Below, one piece after another: positions 4,815 to 58,510 of a stretch of 58,510 nt of DNA. Source of the stretch: Bdellovibrionota bacterium. Lineage in GTDB: Bacteria > Bdellovibrionota_C > UBA2361 > JBIIDM01. Position numbers and translations under genes: made by a program. Positions within the stretch are counted from its first letter, which is position 1; each line of letters opens with the position of its first letter. The stretch is taken from assembly GCA_044238365.1 (NCBI GenBank), contig JBIIDM010000003.1, positions 1 to 58,510 on the forward strand, in the 5' to 3' direction. The notes under the pieces are model-generated. The model ran no database searches, was not told where the DNA came from, and saw only the letters and a list, made by a program, of their open reading frames with translations.

Positions 4815-4887
4815 AACCTGAGTTCGACGTAAGAACTGCGGTAAATGGTTCAGCCATTTGCCGCAGTTCTTACGTCGAACTCAGGTT
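4815..4887. mobile_element. Family A short foldback derivative (A1): 34-bp stem, 5-nt loop
   Basis: aacctgagttcgacgtaagaactgcggtaaatgg-ttcag-ccatttgccgcagttcttacgtcgaactcaggtt, with 1 mismatch in the stem. Both arms are of the 'right-end' type of family A. Confidence 0.85.
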
Positions 4888-5046: not shown

Positions 5047-5104
5047 AGATCCGTTTAGGACAATCCATGGTACCGACTGTTTAGAGTATTTTTCTATAGG
5101 CTCT

Positions 5105-5150
5105 TAGTTAACCTGCTGAAATTTTCAACAAAATTTCAGCAGGTTAACTA
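5105..5150. repeat. Perfect 21-bp-stem palindrome (4-nt loop)
   Basis: tagttaacctgctgaaatttt-caac-aaaatttcagcaggttaacta. No T-tract follows. Lies between B1 and A2. Confidence 0.8.
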
Positions 5151-5157
5151 CTTTCAT

Positions 5158-5334
5158 AACCTGAGTTCGACGTAAGAACAAAGGTAAATGGTTGAAATTG
5201 CCTTAGACACGAGGCGTGCAGTGATATAAAAGCGCAGGCTGAAGCTTGCTACGTCGAGCATTTTATATCATGAGCAACGAAGTGGATGAAGTAATTTCAG
5301 CCATTTACCGCAGTGCTTACGTCGAACTCAGGTT
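5158..5334 (+). mobile_element. Family A MITE, full copy A2 (177 bp)
   Basis: 22-bp TIRs aacctgagttcgacgtaagaac/gttcttacgtcgaactcaggtt with nested internal inverted repeats. Flanked by CAT/CAT. Confidence 0.9.
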
Positions 5335-5538
5335 CATAATCGGGGCATTAAGCTCGGGCGGCGTTTGTAACGACAAGAGTCAAAGGAGGCAAGCTCTTAA
5401 TTTTTTGTCAGATGACAATTTTTTAATTATTTCAGTCGCCAATTGTTCAGAGTTTTGGATTTAGGGTCGAACTCAATTTTGATGGGTTAGGGTACGTAGG
5501 TTGTTTGTGTATGGCGCGCGCGGAAAAAAGGTGGGGTG

Positions 5539-5775
5539 ATGGGTCAATTTGGTGAGCATAAAGCTGAGATTCTAGGAGTTCGTTTCGCAGAACAGGAACG
5601 GTCCAAGACTCTATCACAACGCGGAGCGAGTATGGTCGAATACGCGTTAATTGTAACGTGCATCGCCCTGCTTGCGATTCTTCCTTTAAGTCGATTGGGA
5701 GGAATCACAAGTCGCTCATTTAGGGACGTATCCATTAATTTGGCAATATTTGGAACGGGCGCAAACGGCCAGTAG
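5539..5775 (+). CDS. flp: Flp/Fap family type IVb pilin (prepilin)
   Basis: Flp motif ..RG/ASMVEYALIVTCIALLAI.. followed by a short hydrophobic segment. Size is typical. The leader is longer than usual, so the start (ATG 5539 or GTG 5536) is uncertain. Confidence 0.6.
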   Translation: MGQFGEHKAEILGVRFAEQERSKTLSQRGASMVEYALIVTCIALLAILPLSRLGGITSRSFRDVSINLAIFGTGANGQ

Positions 5776-5881
5776 TTAGCACTGGTTGCGTTCGGAAAAG
5801 CAGGGGCCCCCGAGTGTTCGAATCACCAGAACTCCCGTCGTGGCCGTTACATTTTTCAGATAGCTCGCAGGGCCAAGATAA

Positions 5882-8584
5882 TTAATTCACCCGAATAATT
5901 TCTATGGCCTGGCATATCGCATTTTTGCCTTTAAAGTTAATGTTCAGGACGCCGTCGGTAACGACCGTTGTCGGCGGTTTTACGCTCCAGTCGCCATACC
6001 AGCCGCGAAATGGCCATGTGCTCCCAAGGGAAGTCCAGGGGTCAAAGGCATTAATGCCAACGGTACCTTCCACCGTTACGCTAAAGCTTCGTTTGCCACC
6101 GACTTTGTAACCAAGTTCAGAGTACCACGCACCCACATTATATGTGCCGTTCGGTACCGGTATCGCGTAACCGAACGAATCTCCTTCTCTTTGAGTCTGA
6201 TACAAGGTGTCATCGGTTGTTCCGACCACAGGTTTTGAGTAAGTTCGGACTCTTGATGATCCTTTAATTAAATATGAAGCATTTTCACCTTGCCAGATAT
6301 TTTTCGACTTATCCACGTAATTCTCTCGCGCGCCGCACCGTAGTAGACGTCGAGTTTTGATCGGGGTTACGGTAGGTTCAATTGTTTGTGTGGCTGTTGG
6401 CGTAGGTGTGCGTGTAGGTGTGCGTGTAGGGGTGGCGGTAAAAGGAGGAGTAGTTGTAGCAGTCTTTGTAGGAGTAGCAGTTTTTGTAGGAGTATAGGTA
6501 GCCGTAAAGGTGTTCGAGGCGGCGGCCGTCGGCGTGTTGGTAGTTGTAGCTGTCGGGGTGTTCGTTCTGGTAGCTGTTGCAGTGTTTGACGAAGTAGTTG
6601 TTGGGGTATTTGTCGCGGTAGCTGTTAAAATAAAAGTGGGAGTAGCTGAGGAGGTACTTGTGGGAGTGTAGGTAGCCGTAAAGGTTTTGGACACGGTGGC
6701 TGTCGGCGTATTGGTAGTTGTAGTTGTTGCAGTGTTTGATGCAGTCGCTGAAGCCGTGGGGGTGGGGTTGGCTGTCGGAGGAGTTGAAGCGCATGCTGGA
6801 GTTGTTTTTGGTATACCTGAGCAGATACCAGGTTGGTCCATCTCCACTGACTGCAGTGCCTTTGTAACTTCAGCACAGTCAGTATCGGTTATTCCTTTAA
6901 GTCCTTGAGCAACCATGAGATTACAAGTCTCTGTGATGTGAGTATAGGCCAGGGGGAAATTTTCATCAAAAACAAAGAAGTCGTCCCAAGCCTTTAACAT
7001 AATCTGCATGGTTTTTTCTATGCCAATTCCATTTATACTGCAGCCGTTGAAGGCACCACCCTGAGACATCAGATAATTTGCTTTATTCATTACGCCCATT
7101 TTTTTGTACGAGTCCTCGGCGGCGTCGTTACATGGAAAGAGTGGGCTGTAATAACGGTCAGCTCCTGTGTTGTTTATAGTCGGATCCGCAAGAGAGCGTT
7201 TAGCACCAGTAGGGTACTCTTCGCCTTGGGCCCAATGTTCCTGGTCGGCGGTTGTTAGGTCGGCGTTATAGCTATACTCATAATAGACTGAGAGTAAATC
7301 AGAGAATGATTCATTGAGGGCTCTGGTTTCGGAGGTATTGTTATTATTGAATCCGATCTGTTGACCAGAGGCATTTCGGTTAGCCGCATAAGTTAAAAGA
7401 TGGCCCATTTCATGAGAGACGGTATCTCGGTTTGTGCTATTGTTACAAAAAGCCATGTCGGAACCTGCTGCTGCACCGTATGGGCATCTTCTACGAGTGA
7501 ATAGCACGATCTCGTTTGAGCCGTTGTCAGTATAGTAGGGTGTTGTGTCTTGAACGCGAGTAAATGCTCTATAACTGTCGAGATCTTCGCCGTTAGTCAC
7601 AATATAACCGCCGCCACCACTACCATTCATACCATTTCGATTGAAATTTGAACCGGCTAGGTTGTGTATCTCCTCGATGTATTGATATAGATTCTGCGTG
7701 TCGCGAGGGGATTCAGGGTGATAAGGATTGTCGCGTTGGTCGAGGGGATAGTTAAGATCGTCAGTTCCAAAGGTGTAGAATCCATCAATGGGAAGCCCGT
7801 ATCCTCGCAGGTCAACTCTATCATAGAAACAGTCCTGCGGACCTCGGTAGAGTCGTGCTCCACCCGCTGCCGCAAACTTCGAGAAAGAACAATCGTGAAT
7901 TATCTTTGTCGCTCCGAGCAGATCACTCACCATAAGTTCGATCTTTCCAGTATTTGCATTGACGTACAAGGTATATGAACCTTGCGCTGCCACAGTTGTC
8001 GCACTTACGACTTGCCACACCAGAGTAGTTTGAGTTATTCCAATATTTGTTATCGACGGCTCCACTATCATCAAAGTGACTCGAGGAAACGATCCGAAGA
8101 AGTTTCCGCCAGTTACTGTTGTTAAGTGATTTCGGGCTAGGGTGATTGCCTCTTCACGTGATAAATCTGGATTTGTGTTGATTGCGGTGTAGGGTGCTAT
8201 TTTCCCCGTAAGAAGAATTGGCGAATGATTCTTGTCGAAATGAACTGAGTATGTTGCACCTAAAACAATTACGCCATCACGAAGCTGTTGAAACTCAATC
8301 GCTGGTATTCCTGAGGAGGTTTTATTGATCGGAAGGGGAAGAAGTTCTTCTTGAATGTTGCGAAGATTCAAATCCTCTGAGTGATCCCGCAGAAATTTTT
8401 CCGCAAGAATAACTGGATCTTGGGATGTTGGCGGAGCAGGATCTGTAGAATCCCTGAGAGTCACTAGAAGGCCCTGAAAGTCACGAGTAATTTCGGTTTG
8501 GGCTTGGGTCGAAATTGAAACTCCAAGAACTAGGCAGATGGTAATAAAGATCGCGATGGTCGCGGGCGAGTAATAATGTCTCAT
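5882..8584 (-). CDS. Secreted M4 (thermolysin-like) zinc metalloprotease with Thr/Pro linker and C-terminal malectin-like carbohydrate-binding domain
   Basis: Signal peptide. Propeptide-like N-terminal region. HEXXH (VSHEMGHLL) plus downstream NESFSD Glu ligand. ~150-aa T/P/S/A linker. C-terminal [27 protein letters not shown]. Confidence 0.8.
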
Positions 8585-9364: not shown

Positions 9365-10076
9365 GCTTAGTCAAACGCAGTATGAGAAATTAGGGCTGAA
9401 TATAGCTTTGATGTGCAGTGCCATCGTGATCCCAAGCGCCGGATTCGGAAGGGGCCAGGATCTTTAATAAAATTCAAGTTTCTGTAACCATTTTAGTATA
9501 TTAACTACTTGTGCCGCAGGTGGCGGTGAAATATTTGGTTTGTCAATGAGGGGTGGCGGAATCCAGGGGATATGCTTTCCTATGTTAGACACTCTAAAAT
9601 TAAAGGTTGGGGGGAGGCGGTCTTGTATTAATATCGAAGATGAGTTGTCAAAGTAGTTTGTCAGTGACCTTGATCCTGAGGTTTAACTGTCGTTATTCTC
9701 GCGACACCGTGCACTTGAGCACTACTCTCCTCCGCGTTTTTAGTGCCATCCAAAGGCTTTTATCCCGGGATCTGTATCTGTTTCGCCTTTTCGGTTACGC
9801 TGCACCCCGCAGCTTCGGGATTTAACCCGGATTATTGGCCTGTATCGAAACCATGAACCTGAGTTTGGCAGAAGAACTGAGATTGTGATTTTGGGACTTT
9901 CACGTGTTTTGACCGTAGGTCTGGCTGAGAATCTTGCTTTAGCGGGGCGGGGCAGCTCAGCTAAAAAGGAGGTATGTCTTCTGAATGATTGGGGCTTTCG
10001 GCTTGCAAGGCATATTCCCCTTTTCTAAGTGTCGTGCATTGTTGTGGTGGAACGGAGATTTGTCGAGGTGTTTAAT

Positions 10077-10252
10077 AACCTGAGTTCGATGTAAGAACAA
10101 AGGTAAATGGTTGAAATTGCTTTAGACACGAGGCATGAGTGATATAAAAGCGCAGGCTGAAGCTTGCTACGTCGAGCATTTTATATCATGAGCAACGAAG
10201 TGAATGAAGTAATTTCAACCATTTACCGCAGTTCTTACGTCGAACTCAGGTT
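10077..10252 (+). mobile_element. Family A MITE, full copy A3 (176 bp)
   Basis: About 7 differences from A2 by eye. Flanked by AAT/AAT. Ends 50 nt upstream of the opgG ATG. Confidence 0.9.
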
Positions 10253-10302
10253 AATAAGTGCAGGCGATTCGGTGAGGGGTGGTGTTTGTGAGCAGAGGGG
10301 CT

Positions 10303-20972: not shown

Positions 20973-21151
20973 AACCTGAGTTCGACGTAAGAACTGCGGT
21001 AAATGGTTGAAATTACTTCATCCACTTCGTTGCTCATGATATAAAATGCTCGACGTAGCAAGCTTCAGCGCCTGCGCTTTTATATCACTGCACGCCTCTT
21101 GTCTAAAGCAATTTCAACCATTTACCTTTGTTCTTACGTCGAACTCAGGTT
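20973..21151 (-). mobile_element. Family A MITE, full copy A4 (179 bp, inverted orientation)
   Basis: Same TIRs and interior as A2 in reverse. Flanks TAG/AAG (2 of 3). Sits between convergent genes and abuts a D-family half element. Confidence 0.9.
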
Positions 21152-21154
21152 AAG

Positions 21155-21223
21155 AATATTATTTTCGGCAAAATCTTCAGCACCTTAACCACTATGGTGG
21201 TGCGGGCTCGTGAATAATCCAGG
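21155..21223. mobile_element. Family D half element (D1, right ~70 bp)
   Basis: ..attttcggcaaaatcttcagcaccttaacc..ggtggtgcgggctcgtgaataatccagg matches the right half of D3. The left half is replaced by A4. Confidence 0.6.
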
Positions 21224-21230
21224 ATAGCGC

Positions 21231-22140: not shown

Positions 22141-22213
22141 TTAGTAATGCCAGAGCGTAGAGTAACTGCGGCGGAGAGTAGATATGCGCGCTGATCCAAC
22201 CGCAGGGCCTATT

Positions 22214-22341
22214 TATAGTAATCTTCAAAAATAATAAAGTATTAAAGATTACTATAACGACTCGCGGAGGCGAGTCAAAACAAACACATAGCCATCGCCG
22301 AGATGCGACTCAAAACCACATTATTTTTGACGATGGCTATA
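22214..22341 (+). mobile_element. Family C element (C2, 128 bp)
   Basis: See C1. Flanked by TA/TA. Confidence 0.8.
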
Positions 22342-22500
22342 ATAAGGTAACCTATCTCATGGAGATTCTGTTGTTGGCAAATCTCGGCTTCCAGAGTGCG
22401 GCAAAAATCCTATAAATAACTGCGTTATTTTAACTTTTTCGGCGACACGCTTGGAACCCGGTCTGGCTCACCATGGAAATCCCATAAATTATCCGACTTA

Positions 22501-23328
22501 TTACAAAGACTCAACGGGCAGTAGATATCCTCGCGATATGCCATCAGCACGAGTGGGGAGAGAAAACGACACTGTTTCGCCAAGAGTAATGTTACCGCAG
22601 CAGATCCCCGATACCACCCACGGGTATATTTCGTGTTCCTTCTTAAGGACTCTCTTGGAGAGTAGGTCTGGGGTCTCGTTTGCGTCTATTTTCATTGCGG
22701 CCTGAGCGATGATCGGGCCGGCGTCAACTTCAGGGATCACCAGATGGACCGAACAACCGTGTTGGGTTACGCCATGTGCTAAGGCGCGTTCATGGGTGTT
22801 TAGCCCGGGAAAAGCCGGTAATAACGAAGGGTGTATATTGATTATTTTGGGGAAGAGCTGCTCAGTAAAAGCAGGCGGAAGGACTTTCATGAAACCGGCC
22901 AGACACACCAGGGTTGGCTGTACTTCAAGAACGCGGTCAAGAAGGTGCGCAAAAAATCGATTTTTTGAGTTGAATGAGGATCGGTCGGGTAGAACGATAG
23001 TATCTATGCCGCGCTCCTGTGCCCATGCCAGACCTGCAGTCGATGGATTGTCGGAAATTACCCGAATAACTGAGTAATTTCCTGCTTGGCCAGTGATGCT
23101 TCTTTCGGTAGCTTCGCTGTGAGCATGTTCGACAAGGGCCATCATGTTGGATCCTCGACCTGAGATTAGGACGACAACAGGGGCAGGGGGTCGTTGTGTC
23201 CCCCCTCTGCCGCCATCATCCTCGCATGATTCAGCGCAAGCTGCACTGCCTGTTAATGTGCTCACGAATTGATCCTTTTTAAATGTCAATGATACTCTCC
23301 TGGTAACCTGAGTTCGACGTAAGAACAA
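22501..23328 (-). CDS. purN: Phosphoribosylglycinamide formyltransferase
   Basis: VVVLISGRGSNMMAL, FMKVLPP, INIHPSLLPAFPG and HLVIPEVDAGPII motifs. The ORF-track start (TTG 23328) lies inside MITE A5, so the true start is uncertain. Confidence 0.85.
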   Translation of the reverse strand: MFLRRTQVTRRVSLTFKKDQFVSTLTGSAACAESCEDDGGRGGTQRPPAPVVVLISGRGSNMMALVEHAHSEATERSITGQAGNYSVIRVISDNPSTAGLAWAQERGIDTIVLPDRSSFNSKNRFFAHLLDRVLEVQPTLVCLAGFMKVLPPAFTEQLFPKIINIHPSLLPAFPGLNTHERALAHGVTQHGCSVHLVIPEVDAGPIIAQAAMKIDANETPDLLSKRVLKKEHEIYPWVVSGICCGNITLGETVSFSLPTRADGISRGYLLPVESL

Positions 23329-23482
23329 AGGTAAATGGCTAAAATTGCTTTAGACACGAGGTGTGCAGTGATATAAAAGCGCAGGCTGACAGCTTGCTAC
23401 GTCGAGCATCTTATATCATGAGCAACGAAGTGGATGAAGTAATTTTAGCCATTTACCGCAGTTATTACGTCGAACTCAGGTT
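23305..23482 (+). mobile_element. Family A MITE, full copy A5 (178 bp)
   Basis: TIRs and interior as A2. Flanked by GGT/GGT. Overlaps the 5' end of the purN ORF by 24 nt. Confidence 0.9.
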
Positions 23483-26160: not shown

Positions 26161-26341
26161 TGGTTTTTTGTACAAGGAGATTCTGTGGGTGGTGCTAAGG
26201 TATCAGAAATTACTATTGTAACTGAACTTTGTGATCCGCCGAATATTTAGAGTTGAATATGTAAAAAGTATAATAGCAAAAGAGTCTGCAATTGCCCAGA
26301 GGGAATAGGAGCACCCACTTACTGCAGTTCTGACGACGAGC

Positions 26342-26497
26342 TTAAGTCGAATAGGTTGTAGTTATTTCACTTCTGTCGCAGGAGTACACCGCCTGTTCAT
26401 CAGTGATTTCGTCGGGGATCGGCGCGAGGTTCGCCACGGCGTTGTTGACGTGAAAGTACTCGGCAAAACTACCGTCCTTAACATTCGCATCATCATT
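26342..26497 (-). pseudogene. Internal fragment of a Zn-dependent (MDR) alcohol dehydrogenase
   Basis: Manual translation: NDDANVKDGSFAEYFHVNNAVANLAPIPDEITDEQAVYSCDRSEITTTYST*. It matches the ADH segment DGG(F/Y)AEY..V....L..IPD.L..E.AA...CAG.TTY. It lacks both the catalytic N-terminus and the Rossmann fold. Confidence 0.5.
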
Positions 26498-32303: not shown

Positions 32304-32355
32304 CCCGGATTATTCACGAGCCCGCTCTGGAGGTGCATTTCGTGAATAATCCTGG
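32304..32355. mobile_element. Family D short hairpin derivative (D2, 52 bp)
   Basis: cccggattattcacgag...ttcgtgaataatcctgg. Flanks CTAG/TTAG. 40 nt downstream of the deaD stop, so it may act as a terminator. Confidence 0.7.
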
Positions 32356-32398
32356 TTAGTTATTCACAATAATAACCTTACAATACGTGTGTCGGGAT

Positions 32399-32538
32399 GG
32401 TATAACCATTCCAATTCAAAATGTCCGAAGACTCTATTTGCTGGAATGGCTATTTGCTTGTCCCTCCGGGTGCTTTGCTCTGCAAAGAATATACCGCTTC
32501 CTCGTTTCTTAGGACTTGTTGAAGTGGAATCGGTATAT
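32399..32538 (-). mobile_element. Family B element (B3, ~140 bp, inverted)
   Basis: ggtataaccattccaattcaaaatgtccgaagact ... gaagtggaatcggtatat. Matches the B4 ends in reverse. Confidence 0.6.
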
Positions 32539-39941: not shown

Positions 39942-40304
39942 ATGGGTGATTATAAATTAGCGTATTCAACGGATCCAGAGCAGAATCGCCGTTGCTCAGT
40001 CTGTAAGGAGCTGGTGGCCAATTGTGCCTGTGCGCCTTGGTTCGGTATTCCATCCTTCGACTCATTAGCCCCGGTAATGCAGTTAGAGCGAAAGGGTCGC
40101 GGTGGTAAGTCTGTAACCGTTTTGCGAAAACTACCCCCGTCCAAAGAGCTTTTAGAATTGCTTACAGCCAAACTTAAAAAGAGGTGTGGTACCGGCGGTA
40201 CCTATAAGATCGTTGAGGGTGCTGGGCTGATTGAGATTCAGGGGGACAAACAAGACGAGCTTCGGAAGGCACTTCAAGCGGAGGGCATAGTGCTCAAGGG
40301 ATAA
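39942..40304 (+). CDS. yciH: SUI1/YciH family translation initiation factor-like protein
   Basis: ..RKGRGGKSVTVLRKL....LKKRCGTGGT......IEIQGD.. is typical of SUI1. Confidence 0.8.
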   Translation: MGDYKLAYSTDPEQNRRCSVCKELVANCACAPWFGIPSFDSLAPVMQLERKGRGGKSVTVLRKLPPSKELLELLTAKLKKRCGTGGTYKIVEGAGLIEIQGDKQDELRKALQAEGIVLKG

Positions 40305-40310
40305 TCCTAT

Positions 40311-40331
40311 TTCTTACGTCGAACTCAGGTT
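40311..40331. mobile_element. Solo family A terminal repeat (A6)
   Basis: ttcttacgtcgaactcaggtt, 6 nt after the yciH stop. Confidence 0.7.
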
Positions 40332-40393
40332 AAAAAGAGCAGTCATTCCAGATGAGTTACTTTCCGTGTTGCTTCAATCTGTCATTTAAACGA

Positions 40394-42708: not shown

Positions 42709-42862
42709 TTGATTATATTTATAAACGTGTTGGTAACGGTCAACGGTCTGTGCTTATAGTATTTAGATGACCTTTTAGCCCCGCTGTCTAGGATTATTTT
42801 CAGCGGAACCCACAATAGACTCGATGTGAGGTTCATGCTGTGTTAGCCCGGACGCCCAATAA

Positions 42863-43164
42863 GGAGCTGTCCAGAAATAAACTGTGCATTTAACGCTCAG
42901 ATTTGCCCTAACCCGGATTATTCACGAGCCACACCACCTGAGCGGTTAATGTACTGAATCTTCCGGCGAAAATGAGATTTTCAGACTTTCATGTGTCTCG
43001 ACACTATGTCAGCCTGAAAATCTCATTTTCTCCAAAATATTTATCACCTTAACCGCTCAGGAGGCGCGTCTCGTGAATAATCCGGGCTAAATTTGAACGT
43101 TTTCAGCGAGAAAATGCGCAGGTATACTGGAGTATTCCGAGCATTTTCGAGTAAAGAACGTTCA
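42863..43164. mobile_element. Family E element (E2) interrupted by D3; right part divergent
   Basis: Left part ggagctgtccagaaataaactgtgcatttaacgctcagatttgcccTAA equals E1 (rc). The sequence resumes after D3 with ctaaatttgaacgtt.. . Left flank is TAA. Confidence 0.6.
42912..43086. mobile_element. Family D MITE, full copy D3 (175 bp)
   Basis: 17-bp TIRs cccggattattcacgag/ctcgtgaataatccggg with nested inverted repeats (cctgagcggttaa/ttaaccgctcagg; gaaaatgagattttcag/ctgaaaatctcattttc). Flanked by CTAA/CTAA. Confidence 0.85.
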
Positions 43165-43193
43165 AACCTGAGTTCTTACATCGAACTTAGGCT
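43165..43193. mobile_element. Collapsed family A remnant (A7)
   Basis: aacctgagttcttacatcgaacttaggct: the two A termini are fused with no interior. Confidence 0.55.
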
Positions 43194-43195
43194 GT

Positions 43196-43323
43196 TATAG
43201 TAATCTTCAAAAATAATAAAGTATTAAAGATTACTATAACGACTCGCGGAGTCGAGTTAAAACAAACACATAGCCATCGCCGAAATGCTACTCAAAACCG
43301 CATTATTTTTGACGATGGCTATA
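43196..43323 (+). mobile_element. Family C element (C3, 128 bp)
   Basis: See C1/C2. About 5 differences from C2. TA flanks. Confidence 0.8.
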
Positions 43324-43441
43324 AGGGAGTTGCAAGCTATTTGACATAAAAAAAGGGAGAGGGTTGACCCGATCGTAGTCCACACGATATCTCAATATTT
43401 CAATCCTCGGTCCGCGCGCTACCAACTAGCGTTCAACGTTC

Positions 43442-44420: not shown

Positions 44421-44561
44421 ATATAGCGGTTTCACTTTAAAAAGTCATAGAAAATGCGGAACCGGTATATTCTTGACGGGGCAAAGTCCCTGCGAGGGAC
44501 AAACAAATACGCACTCCAGTACAATTAGTCTTCAGACATTTTGAATTGGAATGGGTATACC
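44421..44561 (+). mobile_element. Family B element (B4, ~141 bp)
   Basis: atatagcggtttcactttaaaaagtcata ... cattttgaattggaatgggtatacc. Its right end merges with the A-family terminal fragment A8. Confidence 0.6.
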
Positions 44562-44586
44562 TTTGTTCTTATCCGAAACTCAGGTT
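44558..44586. mobile_element. Family A terminal fragment (A8)
   Basis: tacctttgttcttatccgaaactcaggtt compared with the consensus tacctttgttcttacgtcgaactcaggtt. Confidence 0.55.
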
Positions 44587-44708: not shown

Positions 44709-44857
44709 TACCTGAGGTCGACGTAAGACCCCTACGGATATTAGCTCGGTATTAAATGCTCGACGTAGCACGCTACGCTGAGCGCTTTCAGATCACTCTC
44801 GCTTGTATTTACAGTATTTTCAGCTACTTACCTTTGTTCTTACGTCGAACGCAGGTC
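44709..44857 (-). mobile_element. Family A MITE, divergent copy A9 (~149 bp)
   Basis: tacctgaggtcgacgtaagac ... tacctttgttcttacgtcgaacgcaggtc. The interior retains aaatgctcgacgtagca. Ends 13 nt before the ATG at 44871. Confidence 0.7.
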
Positions 44858-48482: not shown

Positions 48483-48600
48483 ACGTTGTTTTCAAATTTT
48501 GAAGTTTTGTAGTAGAGTCAGTGCTGCTGTTTCACAGTCGATTGAAAATATACCCGATCTGGCAATGAGAGTCACTGTATTCATTTTGTGTTCTGATTAT

Positions 48601-48690
48601 TTAGGCCTTACCAATTTTTTAGGCCTTGCCAATTTTTTAGGCCTTGCCAATTTTTTAGGCCTTGCCAATTTTTTAGGCCTTGCCAATGTT
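48601..48690. repeat. Tandem direct repeat, 18 bp x 5
   Basis: ttaggccttRccaatKtt repeated head-to-tail. Three internal copies are identical and the first and last each differ by 1 nt. Lies in the divergent hbd/E1 intergenic region. Confidence 0.9.
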
Positions 48691-48739
48691 AGGATAGTGC
48701 TCATTTTCAATCAACGCGTTCTATGATTTTATATTTTTA

Positions 48740-54148: not shown

Positions 54149-55111
54149 ATGAATGGGCCCACACATTTGTCAGTTGTTATACCGTGTTACAATGAAGAGG
54201 CGGTGCTGCCTTTCTTGTTTGGGCGGATGCACGAGGTTCTGGGAGCGTTAAAGTGTCCCTATGAAGTTATACTTGTGGACGATGGGAGTCGGGATCGCAC
54301 ACGGGAGATATTACTTACGCAAAGTCAGCAGGACCCTCGCATTAGGGTGGTGGCGCTTTCGCGCAACTTCGGCCATCAGGGTGCTCTGACCGCCGGACTC
54401 GATTATGCCCGGGGAGAAGTAGTGCTCATTATGGATGCTGATTTGCAGGATCCCCCGGAGCTGCTTCCAAAAATGCTAGAGAAGTGGCGGGAGGGGTTTG
54501 ACGTGGTGTATGGCCAGAGAAGTGCCCGGATGGGGGAGTCGTGGTTTAAACGTTCGTGCGCGTTTCTCTTCTACCGGATATTTGAGCGCATTATCGGTAT
54601 AAAGGTTCCCCGGGATACAGGTGATTTTCGCCTTCTCGATCGGCGGGCGGCCAAGGGTCTTGCGGCGCTACGTGAGCCCCACCGCTTCGTGCGAGGGCTG
54701 GTGGCATGGGTCGGCTTTCGACAAACACCGGTCATGTACGAGCGGCCCAACCGGGAGCATGGCGAGACAAAGTATCCCTTCAAGAAGTCCCTATTTCTGG
54801 CAGTTGATGCCATTACGTCATTTTCCTACGCGCCGCTGCGGATGGCAACGTACCTCGGCGTGGCCATTTCTGGTTTTGCCTTTGTGTACATTGCAATTGT
54901 TCTTTTTCTGAAGATCCTAATCTGGTGGGGGCTGGAAATAGAAGAAACGCCTGGCTATACCTCGTTAATGGCGTGTGTTTTGTTGTTGGGAGGTGTTCAG
55001 CTGATCTTTCTGGGGCTGATCGGCGAGTATGTTGGCAGGATTTTCGAGCAGGGGCAGAATCGTCCTTTGTACCTTCTTGATGAAGTGACGCAACCACCGC
55101 CATTGGATTAG
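54149..55111 (+). CDS. GT2 polyprenyl-phosphate glycosyltransferase (ArnC/GtrB/DPM1-like)
   Basis: LSVVIPCYNEE, VLIMDADLQDPPE and two C-terminal TM helices. The ATG at 54149 is preferred, and the ORF is open from 54050. Confidence 0.8.
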   Translation: MNGPTHLSVVIPCYNEEAVLPFLFGRMHEVLGALKCPYEVILVDDGSRDRTREILLTQSQQDPRIRVVALSRNFGHQGALTAGLDYARGEVVLIMDADLQDPPELLPKMLEKWREGFDVVYGQRSARMGESWFKRSCAFLFYRIFERIIGIKVPRDTGDFRLLDRRAAKGLAALREPHRFVRGLVAWVGFRQTPVMYERPNREHGETKYPFKKSLFLAVDAITSFSYAPLRMATYLGVAISGFAFVYIAIVLFLKILIWWGLEIEETPGYTSLMACVLLLGGVQLIFLGLIGEYVGRIFEQGQNRPLYLLDEVTQPPPLD

Positions 55112-55274
55112 CGCGGATTATTCACGAGCCCGCACCACCAGAAGAGTGGCTAGGGCACCCTTTCGACAAAATCGTTGCCACATTGGTAAGTGGCAGCGTT
55201 AATTCCTCCCAAATGTTCCGCTTACCATGCGGTGCCCGAGTTTCTAAGTGCTCTGGTCTCGTGTTTAATGTGAT
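55112..55274. mobile_element. Family D element, degenerate copy D4
   Basis: Left TIR cgcggattattcacgagcccgcaccacc starts immediately after TTAG, whose TAG is the GT2 stop. The right TIR is only ~13/19 conserved (gtctcgtgtttaatgtgat). Confidence 0.45.
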
Positions 55275-55315: not shown

Positions 55316-55492
55316 AACCTGAGTTCGACGTAAGAACTGCGGTAAATGGCTGAGATTACTTCATCCACTTCGTTGCGAATGATATAAAATGCTCGACGTA
55401 GCAAGCTGTCAGCCTGCGCTTTTATATCATTCGCGCCTTGTGTCTAAAGCAATTTCAACCATGTACCTTTGTTCTTACGTCGAACTCAGGTT
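55316..55492 (-). mobile_element. Family A MITE, full copy A10 (177 bp)
   Basis: TIRs and interior as A4. Flanked by ATG/ATG. Abuts a B-family end fragment. Confidence 0.9.
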
Positions 55493-58255: not shown

Positions 58256-58510
58256 ATGGCGATATTTGCGCTTAATATTTGGTACCGGACTGTGGGTGAT
58301 GATAGAGACTACTATGGCGAGAAAGTAGTTGACCTTATGGATGGTCAGGCTGTTTTTCCCGGTCAACAGGATGGCGAACGTATTCTTTACGTAATCCGGG
58401 TTCATCCATTGCTACTTGTTTTCCGCCTCCTAAGGGGTGTTATTCTGTTCGCGCTTTTCTGCGCCGCCTGGTACCGAGGGGGGTCAGTTATCACAGCTGC
58501 AACACCGGGT
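58256..58510 (+). CDS. Partial CDS (5' part), membrane protein possibly of the bacterial PH (YdbT-like) type
   Basis: Open frame from ATG 58256 to the window end (MAIFALNIWYRTVGDDRDYYGEKVVDLMDGQAVFPGQQDGERILYVIRVHPLLLVFRLLRGVILFALF..). Absent from the ORF track because it has no stop. Confidence 0.35.
   Translation, partial: MAIFALNIWYRTVGDDRDYYGEKVVDLMDGQAVFPGQQDGERILYVIRVHPLLLVFRLLRGVILFALFCAAWYRGGSVITAATPG

Follow-up and report, generated by a model that had tools for sequence, protein, structure and literature searches.

Is the ~175-bp hairpin repeat that recurs in the 58,510-nt stretch of DNA analysed here (the window) a mobile element, or a regulatory site that the host conserves? The earlier note had favoured transposition, and target-site duplications, an insertion into another repeat, absences in relatives and a lack of covariation all bear that reading out. 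The repeats, referred to as family A, are genuine miniature transposable elements with IS982-type ends and represent an ordinary though abundant type of selfish DNA of an uncultured bacterium. An ordinary chromosomal region, the window contains folE, folB, a folK-like gene, mdoG/mdoH, genes for TrkA-domain proteins and a P-type ATPase, DeaD, yciH, lpxD, an E1 dehydrogenase gene and prfC, as well as a leucine-catabolism cluster encoding isovaleryl-CoA dehydrogenase and methylcrotonyl-CoA carboxylase subunits. Pfam analysis of 40 ORFs found no transposase, integrase, RAYT or cas genes in the window, tblastn likewise found no cognate transposase there, as had been claimed, and ARAGORN found no tRNA or tmRNA in the window.

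The 22-nt string AACCTGAGTTCGACGTAAGAAC had 16 matches in the window at up to three mismatches and none in 100 dinucleotide-preserving shuffles. This terminus delimits five full copies, a sixth that is old and diverged, a 73-bp derivative and a number of remnants (Table 1), and terminus matches and alignment placed all six of the previously proposed full copies at the same coordinates and in the same orientations. The copies are about 173-179 bp long and non-coding, with stops in all six frames of the consensus, and their terminal inverted repeats (TIRs) of 21-22 nt are perfect or have one mismatch in the five young copies. Pairwise identity among these five is 92-96%, and each is 94-98% identical to their own consensus. 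The mean column identity of the aligned window copies was 87%, and 92% once eight metagenome copies were added. A2 and A3 had been thought to differ at ~7 positions; the alignment gave 14 columns for this pair and 7 for A1 and A2. All 12 family A pieces in the window are intergenic, at a coding fraction of 0.79 by our gene list. A2 ends 26 bp before the first possible mdoG start codon (GTG at 10279), A3 separates a divergently oriented pair, a formyltransferase-domain gene and a DAO oxidoreductase gene, and A6, with internal deletions and its duplication gone, ends 14 bp upstream of a Wzy_C gene. In all, the 58.5 kb contain seven two-ended copies plus remnants.

Table 1. Family A copies, derivatives and remnants in the window, and intact insertion sequences (IS) with the same left end
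Feature	Location	Strand	Remarks
A1, full copy, 177 bp	5158-5334	+	98.3% identical to window consensus; single long hairpin; 5159-5333 when read with AC ends; TCATA on both flanks
A2, full copy, 176 bp	10077-10252	+	Duplication TAATA
A3, full copy, 178 bp	23305-23482	+	Duplication TGGTA
A4, full copy, 179 bp	20973-21151	-	Perfect termini at both ends; flanks TCTTA and TCTAT, no clean duplication
A5, full copy, 177 bp	55316-55492	-	Duplication TCATA (ATG/ATG on the + strand)
A6, old diverged copy, 149 bp	44709-44857	-	~63% identical to the others
Palindromic short derivative, 73 bp	4815-4887		Complete; two perfect 22-nt termini
Solo right end	40310-40331		Flank TAAAA
Mini derivative, 29 bp	43165-43193		First 11 nt of left terminus and last 18 nt of right terminus
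Degenerate solo end	44558-44586		TACCTTTGTTCTTATCCGAAACTCAGGTT
Degenerate solo left end	9856-9879		AACCTGAGTTTGGCAGAAGAAC, 4 mismatches; by inspection
Degenerate right-end remnant	26311-26348		..ACTTACTGCAGTTCTGACGACGAGCT..; by inspection
Possible further derivative (uncertain)	5107-5148		42-bp perfect palindrome GTTAACCTGCTGAAATTTT..AAAATTTCAGCAGGTTAAC; by inspection only
Intact IS, 1029 bp, Snuella sedimenti CAU 1569	L195 826-1854		Exact left-end 20-mer; duplication TTTTA
Intact IS, 1029 bp, Autumnicola edwardsiae	L206		Exact left-end 20-mer; duplication TAATA
Intact IS, 1029 bp, Aquimarina longa	L221		Exact left-end 20-mer; duplication TACGA

When the element was read as ACC...GGT, a perfect 5-bp TNNNA repeat flanked 11 of the 15 copies from the window and one metagenome. 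The duplications were TCATA (four copies), TAATA (two copies) and TGGTA, TTTTA, TATTA, TGTTA and TAAAA (one copy each). Permuting the right flanks among copies gave an expectation of 1.7 matches, and 0 of 100000 permutations reached 11, so the flank identity is not mere chance. The 3-bp flanks reported for the window copies (CAT/CAT, AAT/AAT, GGT/GGT and ATG/ATG, with a 2/3 match at A4) are present as stated, and the base outside each 3-bp repeat is fixed as T on the left and A on the right. The proposed structure of a 22-bp TIR with a 3-bp duplication is thus right, and it equally reads as a 21-bp TIR starting from AC with a 5-bp TNNNA duplication. The two readings refer to one and the same sequence and would both leave T-NNN-A as the empty site, and the flanks cannot separate them; the AC-ended reading is preferred here only because it follows the IS982 convention.

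The IS family to which these termini belong is IS982. A search for an IS with the same TIR found IS982-family elements with an identical left-end 20-mer: the terminus ACCTGAGTTCGACGTAAGAA is identical (20/20) to the left inverted repeat (IR) of intact 1029-bp elements that contain a single 301-aa transposase ORF (NF033520); the hosts of these elements are Snuella, Aquimarina, Autumnicola and other Bacteroidota. More intact 1029-bp copies with the exact 20-mer were found in Aquimarina and Arenibacter MAGs. There were no terminus matches at up to three mismatches in ~1.87 Mb of unrelated control loci, and a literature search for the terminus string returned unrelated primers only. The exact 22-mer is present in two Flavobacteriaceae MAGs (Maribacter and Algibacter), and on the Maribacter contig it lies directly upstream of a truncated ORF (MNSTNKITEIFCSIDDFC...), which tblastn against plasmids aligned with the N-termini of genes annotated as IS982-family transposase. 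The 53-aa N-terminal peptide, which is too short, had no match in NCBIfam. Its homologues led to ~1029-bp elements in L179, L180 and L182 with the left IR ACCTGAGTTCGACGTAAGAAA (20/21 against the MITE end) and the right IR ACCTGAGTTCGAC(C/G)TAAGGAT, and ORF2 of these elements scored 211-220 bits on NF033520, 'IS982 family transposase' (cutoff 130). In a large protein set, all homologues of the N-terminal peptide were ≤90 aa and their truncation points differed; a programmed two-ORF design of the parent-clade IS was therefore rejected, and the homologues are decayed copies with varied truncation points. Scanning a genome collection with ORF2 gave 80 loci, nearly all in Bacteroidota, and perfect 5-bp TNNNA repeats were found at fifteen IS copies of this set. 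Every carrier of the matching IS known so far is either a member of Bacteroidota or a MAG whose binning is doubtful.

According to PMC7335449, IS982-family elements are ~1 kb long, generate direct repeats of 2-10 bp and end in IRs of 11-32 bp with the conserved pattern AC(N)6T(N)5TT. The AC-read MITE end, ACCTGAGTTCGACGTA, fits this pattern at A1, C2, T9 and T15 and has A instead of T at position 16, which makes four of the five fixed positions, and the 5-bp (or 3-bp) duplication lies within the IS982 range, with the same TNNNA in the parent clade. Compared to Bacteroidota IS982 elements with this IR (e.g. L195), family A has the terminal 20-21 nt, the TNNNA target and the AC ends in common. 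It differs by its length of ~175 bp, by the lack of a transposase, by left-type IRs at both ends (GTAAGAA, not GTAAGGA) and by an unrelated interior, with a GC content of 43% versus 31% in the Flavobacteriaceae IS. The homology is confined to the terminal 21 nt, which argues for a MITE that took its termini only and against a simple internal deletion of an IS.

Several further features of this IS group were seen. A sister IS982 subgroup (L231, L233, L265 and L268; Bacteroidales/Marinilabiliales) has the ends ACGTGAGTTCGA and 7-bp TNNNNNA duplications, and an IS982 of Prevotella nigrescens has the related end ACCTGAACTCGGGATAAG; a simple script found no TIRs around Vibrio and Acinetobacter IS982 copies, so that the Prevotella copy alone was informative. 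Two related IS982 copies, 88% identical (L179 2268-2273 and L182 ~1495-1510), are broken near the same codon (SYNRFVELM), one by an in-frame TAA and the other by the loss of one T from a T-run, and intact relatives such as L195 read straight past this point. The shared break could be a coincidence or a fragile or slippery site. The exact 20-nt terminus also occurs on five predicted viral contigs from IMG/VR (L277, L278, L279, L280 and L281). Two of these contain a 163-bp two-ended element (L279 4223-4385 and L280 298-460) with a different interior and without TNNNA flanks.

IS982-derived MITEs have been described before, namely MITECca01 and MITECca02 of the Cardinium endosymbiont of Oedothorax gibbosus (PMC9769881). 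Like family A, they are short and non-autonomous, their IRs match an IS982-family IS (theirs is ISCca4), and they are abundant in a repeat-rich genome (PMC9769881). They differ from family A in sequence and parent IS, in their length of ~240 bp and in keeping a short stretch of IS sequence next to the termini; the parent IS is present intact in the same genome, whereas no parent of family A was seen in the surveyed DNA (PMC9769881 for the Cardinium elements). Family A is also unlike them in being a near-perfect palindrome and in having a different kind of host. Another counterpart is a 194-bp element of MITE size in the Algibacter MAG (L002 5868-6061), which has family A termini at both ends, shares 25/25 nt with the family A left end and is flanked by a 5-bp TGTCA duplication. 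Its AT-rich interior is unrelated to that of family A; it is a separate MITE from the same IS clade.

Evidence for mobility came from another repeat and from relatives of the host. In contig L086, a copy of a second hairpin repeat, family B, is interrupted by a family A copy (983-1155) that has TTTTA at either flank. When the family A copy and one TTTTA are removed, the remaining 221 bp align to the intact family B copy at 42901-43095 of the window, with no gap where the two parts meet, and fold as one hairpin; the paralogous empty site is restored exactly. Orthologous loci do not always carry the element either, since A5 is absent from the GT2-LPG synthase spacer of relatives with 80% (L186-188) and 75% (L189-190) DNA identity. 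These relatives keep the window gene order YaeQ, GT2, LPG synthase, prfC, and A5 is present in 99%-identical strains. In L186 and L187, an A-like solo end with the flank TACTA lies downstream of prfC, where the window is without one, and the presence and absence of family A is thus reciprocal with respect to the 80%-identical relative. Alignment of the orthologous spacers yielded no exact empty site for any window copy, because the GT2-LPG synthase spacers are too diverged, and exact-protein look-ups for contigs spanning A4 or A5 in other samples returned the same genome or repeat-broken contigs and no empty site.

Copies were also associated with local rearrangements. Two strain contigs with 99.1% identity to the window (L193 and L194) have 1198 bp of DNA unrelated to the window sequence between yciH and lpxD, including a 184-aa ORF with no Pfam match on record. 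Where L193 has positions 5094-6291, the window has 57 bp (40303-40359) that include the solo right end, which suggests that a deletion or a replacement may have occurred beside the family A copy. The solo end is thus polymorphic between nearly identical strains, a further sign of mobility. A4 adjoins half a family B copy (21161-21226), and from this and its mismatched flanks we infer a rearrangement after insertion. Two other candidates were discarded: an apparent insertion polymorphism between the metagenome contig L183 (from 6940 onward), which otherwise equals the window, and the window (58471-58510) was a chimera-like poly-C assembly artefact, and a kinship between the flanks of A2 and those of the 40310 solo end was rejected as the similarity does not extend.

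The shorter pieces form a series of derivatives. The unit at 4815-4887 had been listed as a solo end and is instead a complete derivative; both of its arms are of the right-arm type (..AACTGCGGTAAATGG), its flanks agree at 4/5 positions (TAAAA/TGAAA), and it has the appearance of a single end copied by fold-back. The other five claimed remnants are all recognisable. In the 29-bp form, the two termini are fused at their common AGTTC, and this form may have arisen by a slippage deletion. The arms of the palindrome at 5107-5148 consist of AACCTG joined to the family A internal sequence CTGAAATT, with no duplication visible.

The spacers of this chromosome hold other repeats as well. Family B is ~185 bp long with the termini TAGCCCGGATTATTCACGAG; besides the intact copy, whose repeat unit spans 42908-43090, there are partial copies at 21161-21226, 55110-55160 and 32322-32358, and others were found in L086 (866-1264), in the 80%-identical relative (L186 5240-5330) and on contigs of the metagenome Ga0169931. 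Family A copies often lie within or beside family B. A third repeat of ~140 bp occurs at 32392-32538 and 44439-44559 and in relatives (L189 3443-3581, L190 422-560 and L191 3637-3685), and in the 75%-identical relative it fills the GT2-LPG synthase spacer, which in the window is occupied by A5. The palindrome TTATAGTAATCTTCAAAAATAATAAAGTATTAAAGATTACTATAA opens a fourth repeat, 130 bp long, which is present at 22213-22342 and 43195-43324 (96% identical) and also at 339-384. The spacer 42709-43441 is a stack of family B, a small palindrome, the 29-bp family A remnant and the fourth repeat. Directly upstream of the E1 dehydrogenase gene (48740), 5-6 tandem copies of an 18-bp unit, ATTTTTTAGGCCTTGCCA, span 48596-48708. 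At 6484-6798, direct repeats of 141 nt with spacings of 24 and 126 nt lie within a 900-aa M4-peptidase/malectin ORF and probably represent a repeated protein module.

Further copies of family A were sought with a 30-mer that spans terminus and interior. This element-specific 30-mer had no match in the GTDB species genomes, and blastn of the element had none in the PLSDB plasmids. The 30-mer matched 13 contigs of one JGI metagenome, Ga0169931, which contain eight more full copies of 173 bp that form a sister subfamily, with a consensus 95.5% identical to that of the window. The Ga0169931 contigs and the window have repeats in common and no unique DNA. Several of them, and contigs of the window's organism in other samples, start or stop inside a copy, the usual sign of a high-copy repeat. 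Contigs identical to the window were found in JGI 3300042471 and 3300059473 and in SRR27422089, and the 99%-identical strains come from SRR33769837, SRR33769802 and ERZ19025681. Among the GTDB matches listed, the host RF3 had ≤57% identity (Nitrospira, FCPU426, Bdellovibrionales and Parachlamydiaceae); the nearest named proteins, at 62-63%, are from MAGs labelled Deltaproteobacteria and Oligoflexia, and the host MdoG is 48% identical to that of a Scalindua MAG. Judged by these proteins, the host appears to lie outside Bacteroidota, the home of the matching IS clade.

Taken together, the TIRs, the duplications, the many copies, the absence of coding capacity and the insertion evidence fit a MITE, and it is very probable that family A is one with IS982-type termini and the target TNNNA. 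An IS982-type DDE transposase, encoded by a full-length IS at another place in the genome or by a past visitor, would bind the two ~21-nt ends ACCTGAGTTCGACGTAAGAAC and insert the element in trans at T-NNN-A sites, with duplication of the target; the duplication would be 5 bp (TNNNA) counted from the AC end and 3 bp with the flanking A/T assigned to the terminus. The IS would contribute the termini only, and the interior is unrelated sequence in the form of a near-perfect palindrome. Since both ends are of the left-IR type, the palindrome probably originated by a fold-back (template-switch) duplication of one IS end and its adjoining DNA. Copies would survive only in spacers, where they would decay neutrally and erode by internal deletions to forms such as those of 73 and 29 bp.

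It is possible, though on balance doubtful, that this same IS982-type MITE is now a fossil, immobile because its autonomous partner was lost from the lineage, and that its relics merely decay and recombine. A tblastn search of the window and of ~60 kb from other contigs of the organism and its relatives detected no IS982-family transposase; this survey covers only ~2% of one genome. All copies differ from one another, and they lie 2-6% from the consensus, more than the 0.9% between strains that share A5. The many remnants and deletion derivatives would also be expected of a fossil, and the close Flavobacteriaceae relatives of the IS that were found via the N-terminal peptide are mostly truncated. 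Against this, several copies retain perfect termini and duplications, and there is one A-associated difference between 99%-identical strains, which could be a deletion and not a new insertion. A more elaborate scenario seems improbable to us: a recent jump across phyla of an IS982 lineage otherwise seen in marine Flavobacteriaceae and other Bacteroidota, or of a MITE derived from it, followed by amplification without a resident transposase to perhaps hundreds of copies, as extrapolated from the seven two-ended copies of the window (~120 per Mb). The small same-terminus elements on predicted viral contigs could have been vectors in this scenario, and the hairpin of a fold-back palindrome would have come to serve as a transcript-level signal at some loci.

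The hairpin itself raises the alternative that the repeats are structured elements which the host keeps for a function, such as hairpins that stabilise or terminate transcripts or protein-binding palindromes of the ERIC or Correia type. The claim of a single long hairpin formed by the entire unit held for A1 both as DNA (-48.4 kcal/mol, z -9.9) and as RNA (-92.9 kcal/mol, z -12.3), and the arms are complementary nearly up to the apex. Such a stable RNA hairpin, the strictly intergenic location of all 12 pieces and a 5-bp stem at the apex of every copy, with a T-rich tail behind it, would all suit a function; the stem and tail recur by homology. However, RNAalifold on 14 copies recovered the hairpin with an unfavourable covariation term (+2.47). 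Of 65 pairs, just one shows a compensatory change and the majority of substitutions disrupt pairing, which argues that the hairpin is not a conserved RNA; a search of the whole window at the Rfam gathering threshold gave no match, and a known structured RNA was rejected on these grounds. A scan for sigma-70-like promoters found none inside the family A copies, and terminator-like matches in the copy regions were no commoner than in shuffles. The copies are in both orientations relative to adjacent genes, they have target duplications, one lies inside another repeat, and they are absent at orthologous sites. We thus consider selection by the host highly unlikely. Effects of family A on neighbouring transcripts are possible, and nothing that was observed requires them. 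The apex (consensus ~88-103; e.g. 5244-5259) has TACGTCGA, the reverse complement of the terminus core TCGACGTA, and A6, for all its age, retains this stretch; the match may be coincidental or mark an internal binding site.

Correia elements of Neisseria and ERIC/IRU elements of Enterobacteriaceae are intergenic, 100-180 bp long, form long hairpins and can be co-transcribed. The proposed likeness of family A to them applies to this architecture and not to the sequence, as there is no sequence similarity and family A has an IS982-type parent and the TNNNA target. Correia elements have a TA duplication and a 26-bp TIR, and to our knowledge no parent IS has been identified for them and ERIC has no clear duplication. 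Assignment of family A as a Correia element (CREE) was rejected on account of the TNNNA duplications and the unrelated termini.

A MITE of another superfamily with 3-bp duplications, such as IS5 or PIF/Harbinger-like elements, would make the IS982 match a coincidence. The 3-bp reading of the duplication in the earlier note would suit this, and IS982 transposases are distantly related to IS5, with weak NF033580/NF033581 matches. IS5 and PIF/Harbinger-like elements have TNA/TWA targets, which the central triplets CAT, AAT, GGT, TTT, ATT, GTT and AAA do not fit, and the 20/20 terminus identity to several intact IS982 elements together with the shared TNNNA is far beyond chance, making this alternative most improbable. 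REP/BIME sequences are palindromes of 20-40 bp without duplications and often clustered with a RAYT gene; family A, with duplications, a unit of ~175 bp and no RAYT gene in the window, was rejected as one. Despite the abundance of intergenic palindromes, a palindrome spread by RAYT (IS200/IS605-like), an integron attC site or a CRISPR-like array can be dismissed as an explanation, since target duplications and 21-nt TIRs are present, the copies are single, dispersed and irregularly spaced among housekeeping genes and not cassettes, and there is no RAYT, integrase or cas gene in the window.

The assignment of family A to MITEs with IS982-type ends opens no new mechanism or long-standing question. 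It adds a clean IS982-derived MITE with a defined target, TNNNA, and for annotation it names a repeat family at which short-read assemblies of this organism break. The series of 177, 73 and 29 bp illustrates how palindromic MITEs erode. The termini belong to an IS clade seen in Bacteroidota, in a host that apparently lies elsewhere, and they point to an IS982-type transposase as the target to search for in a complete genome.
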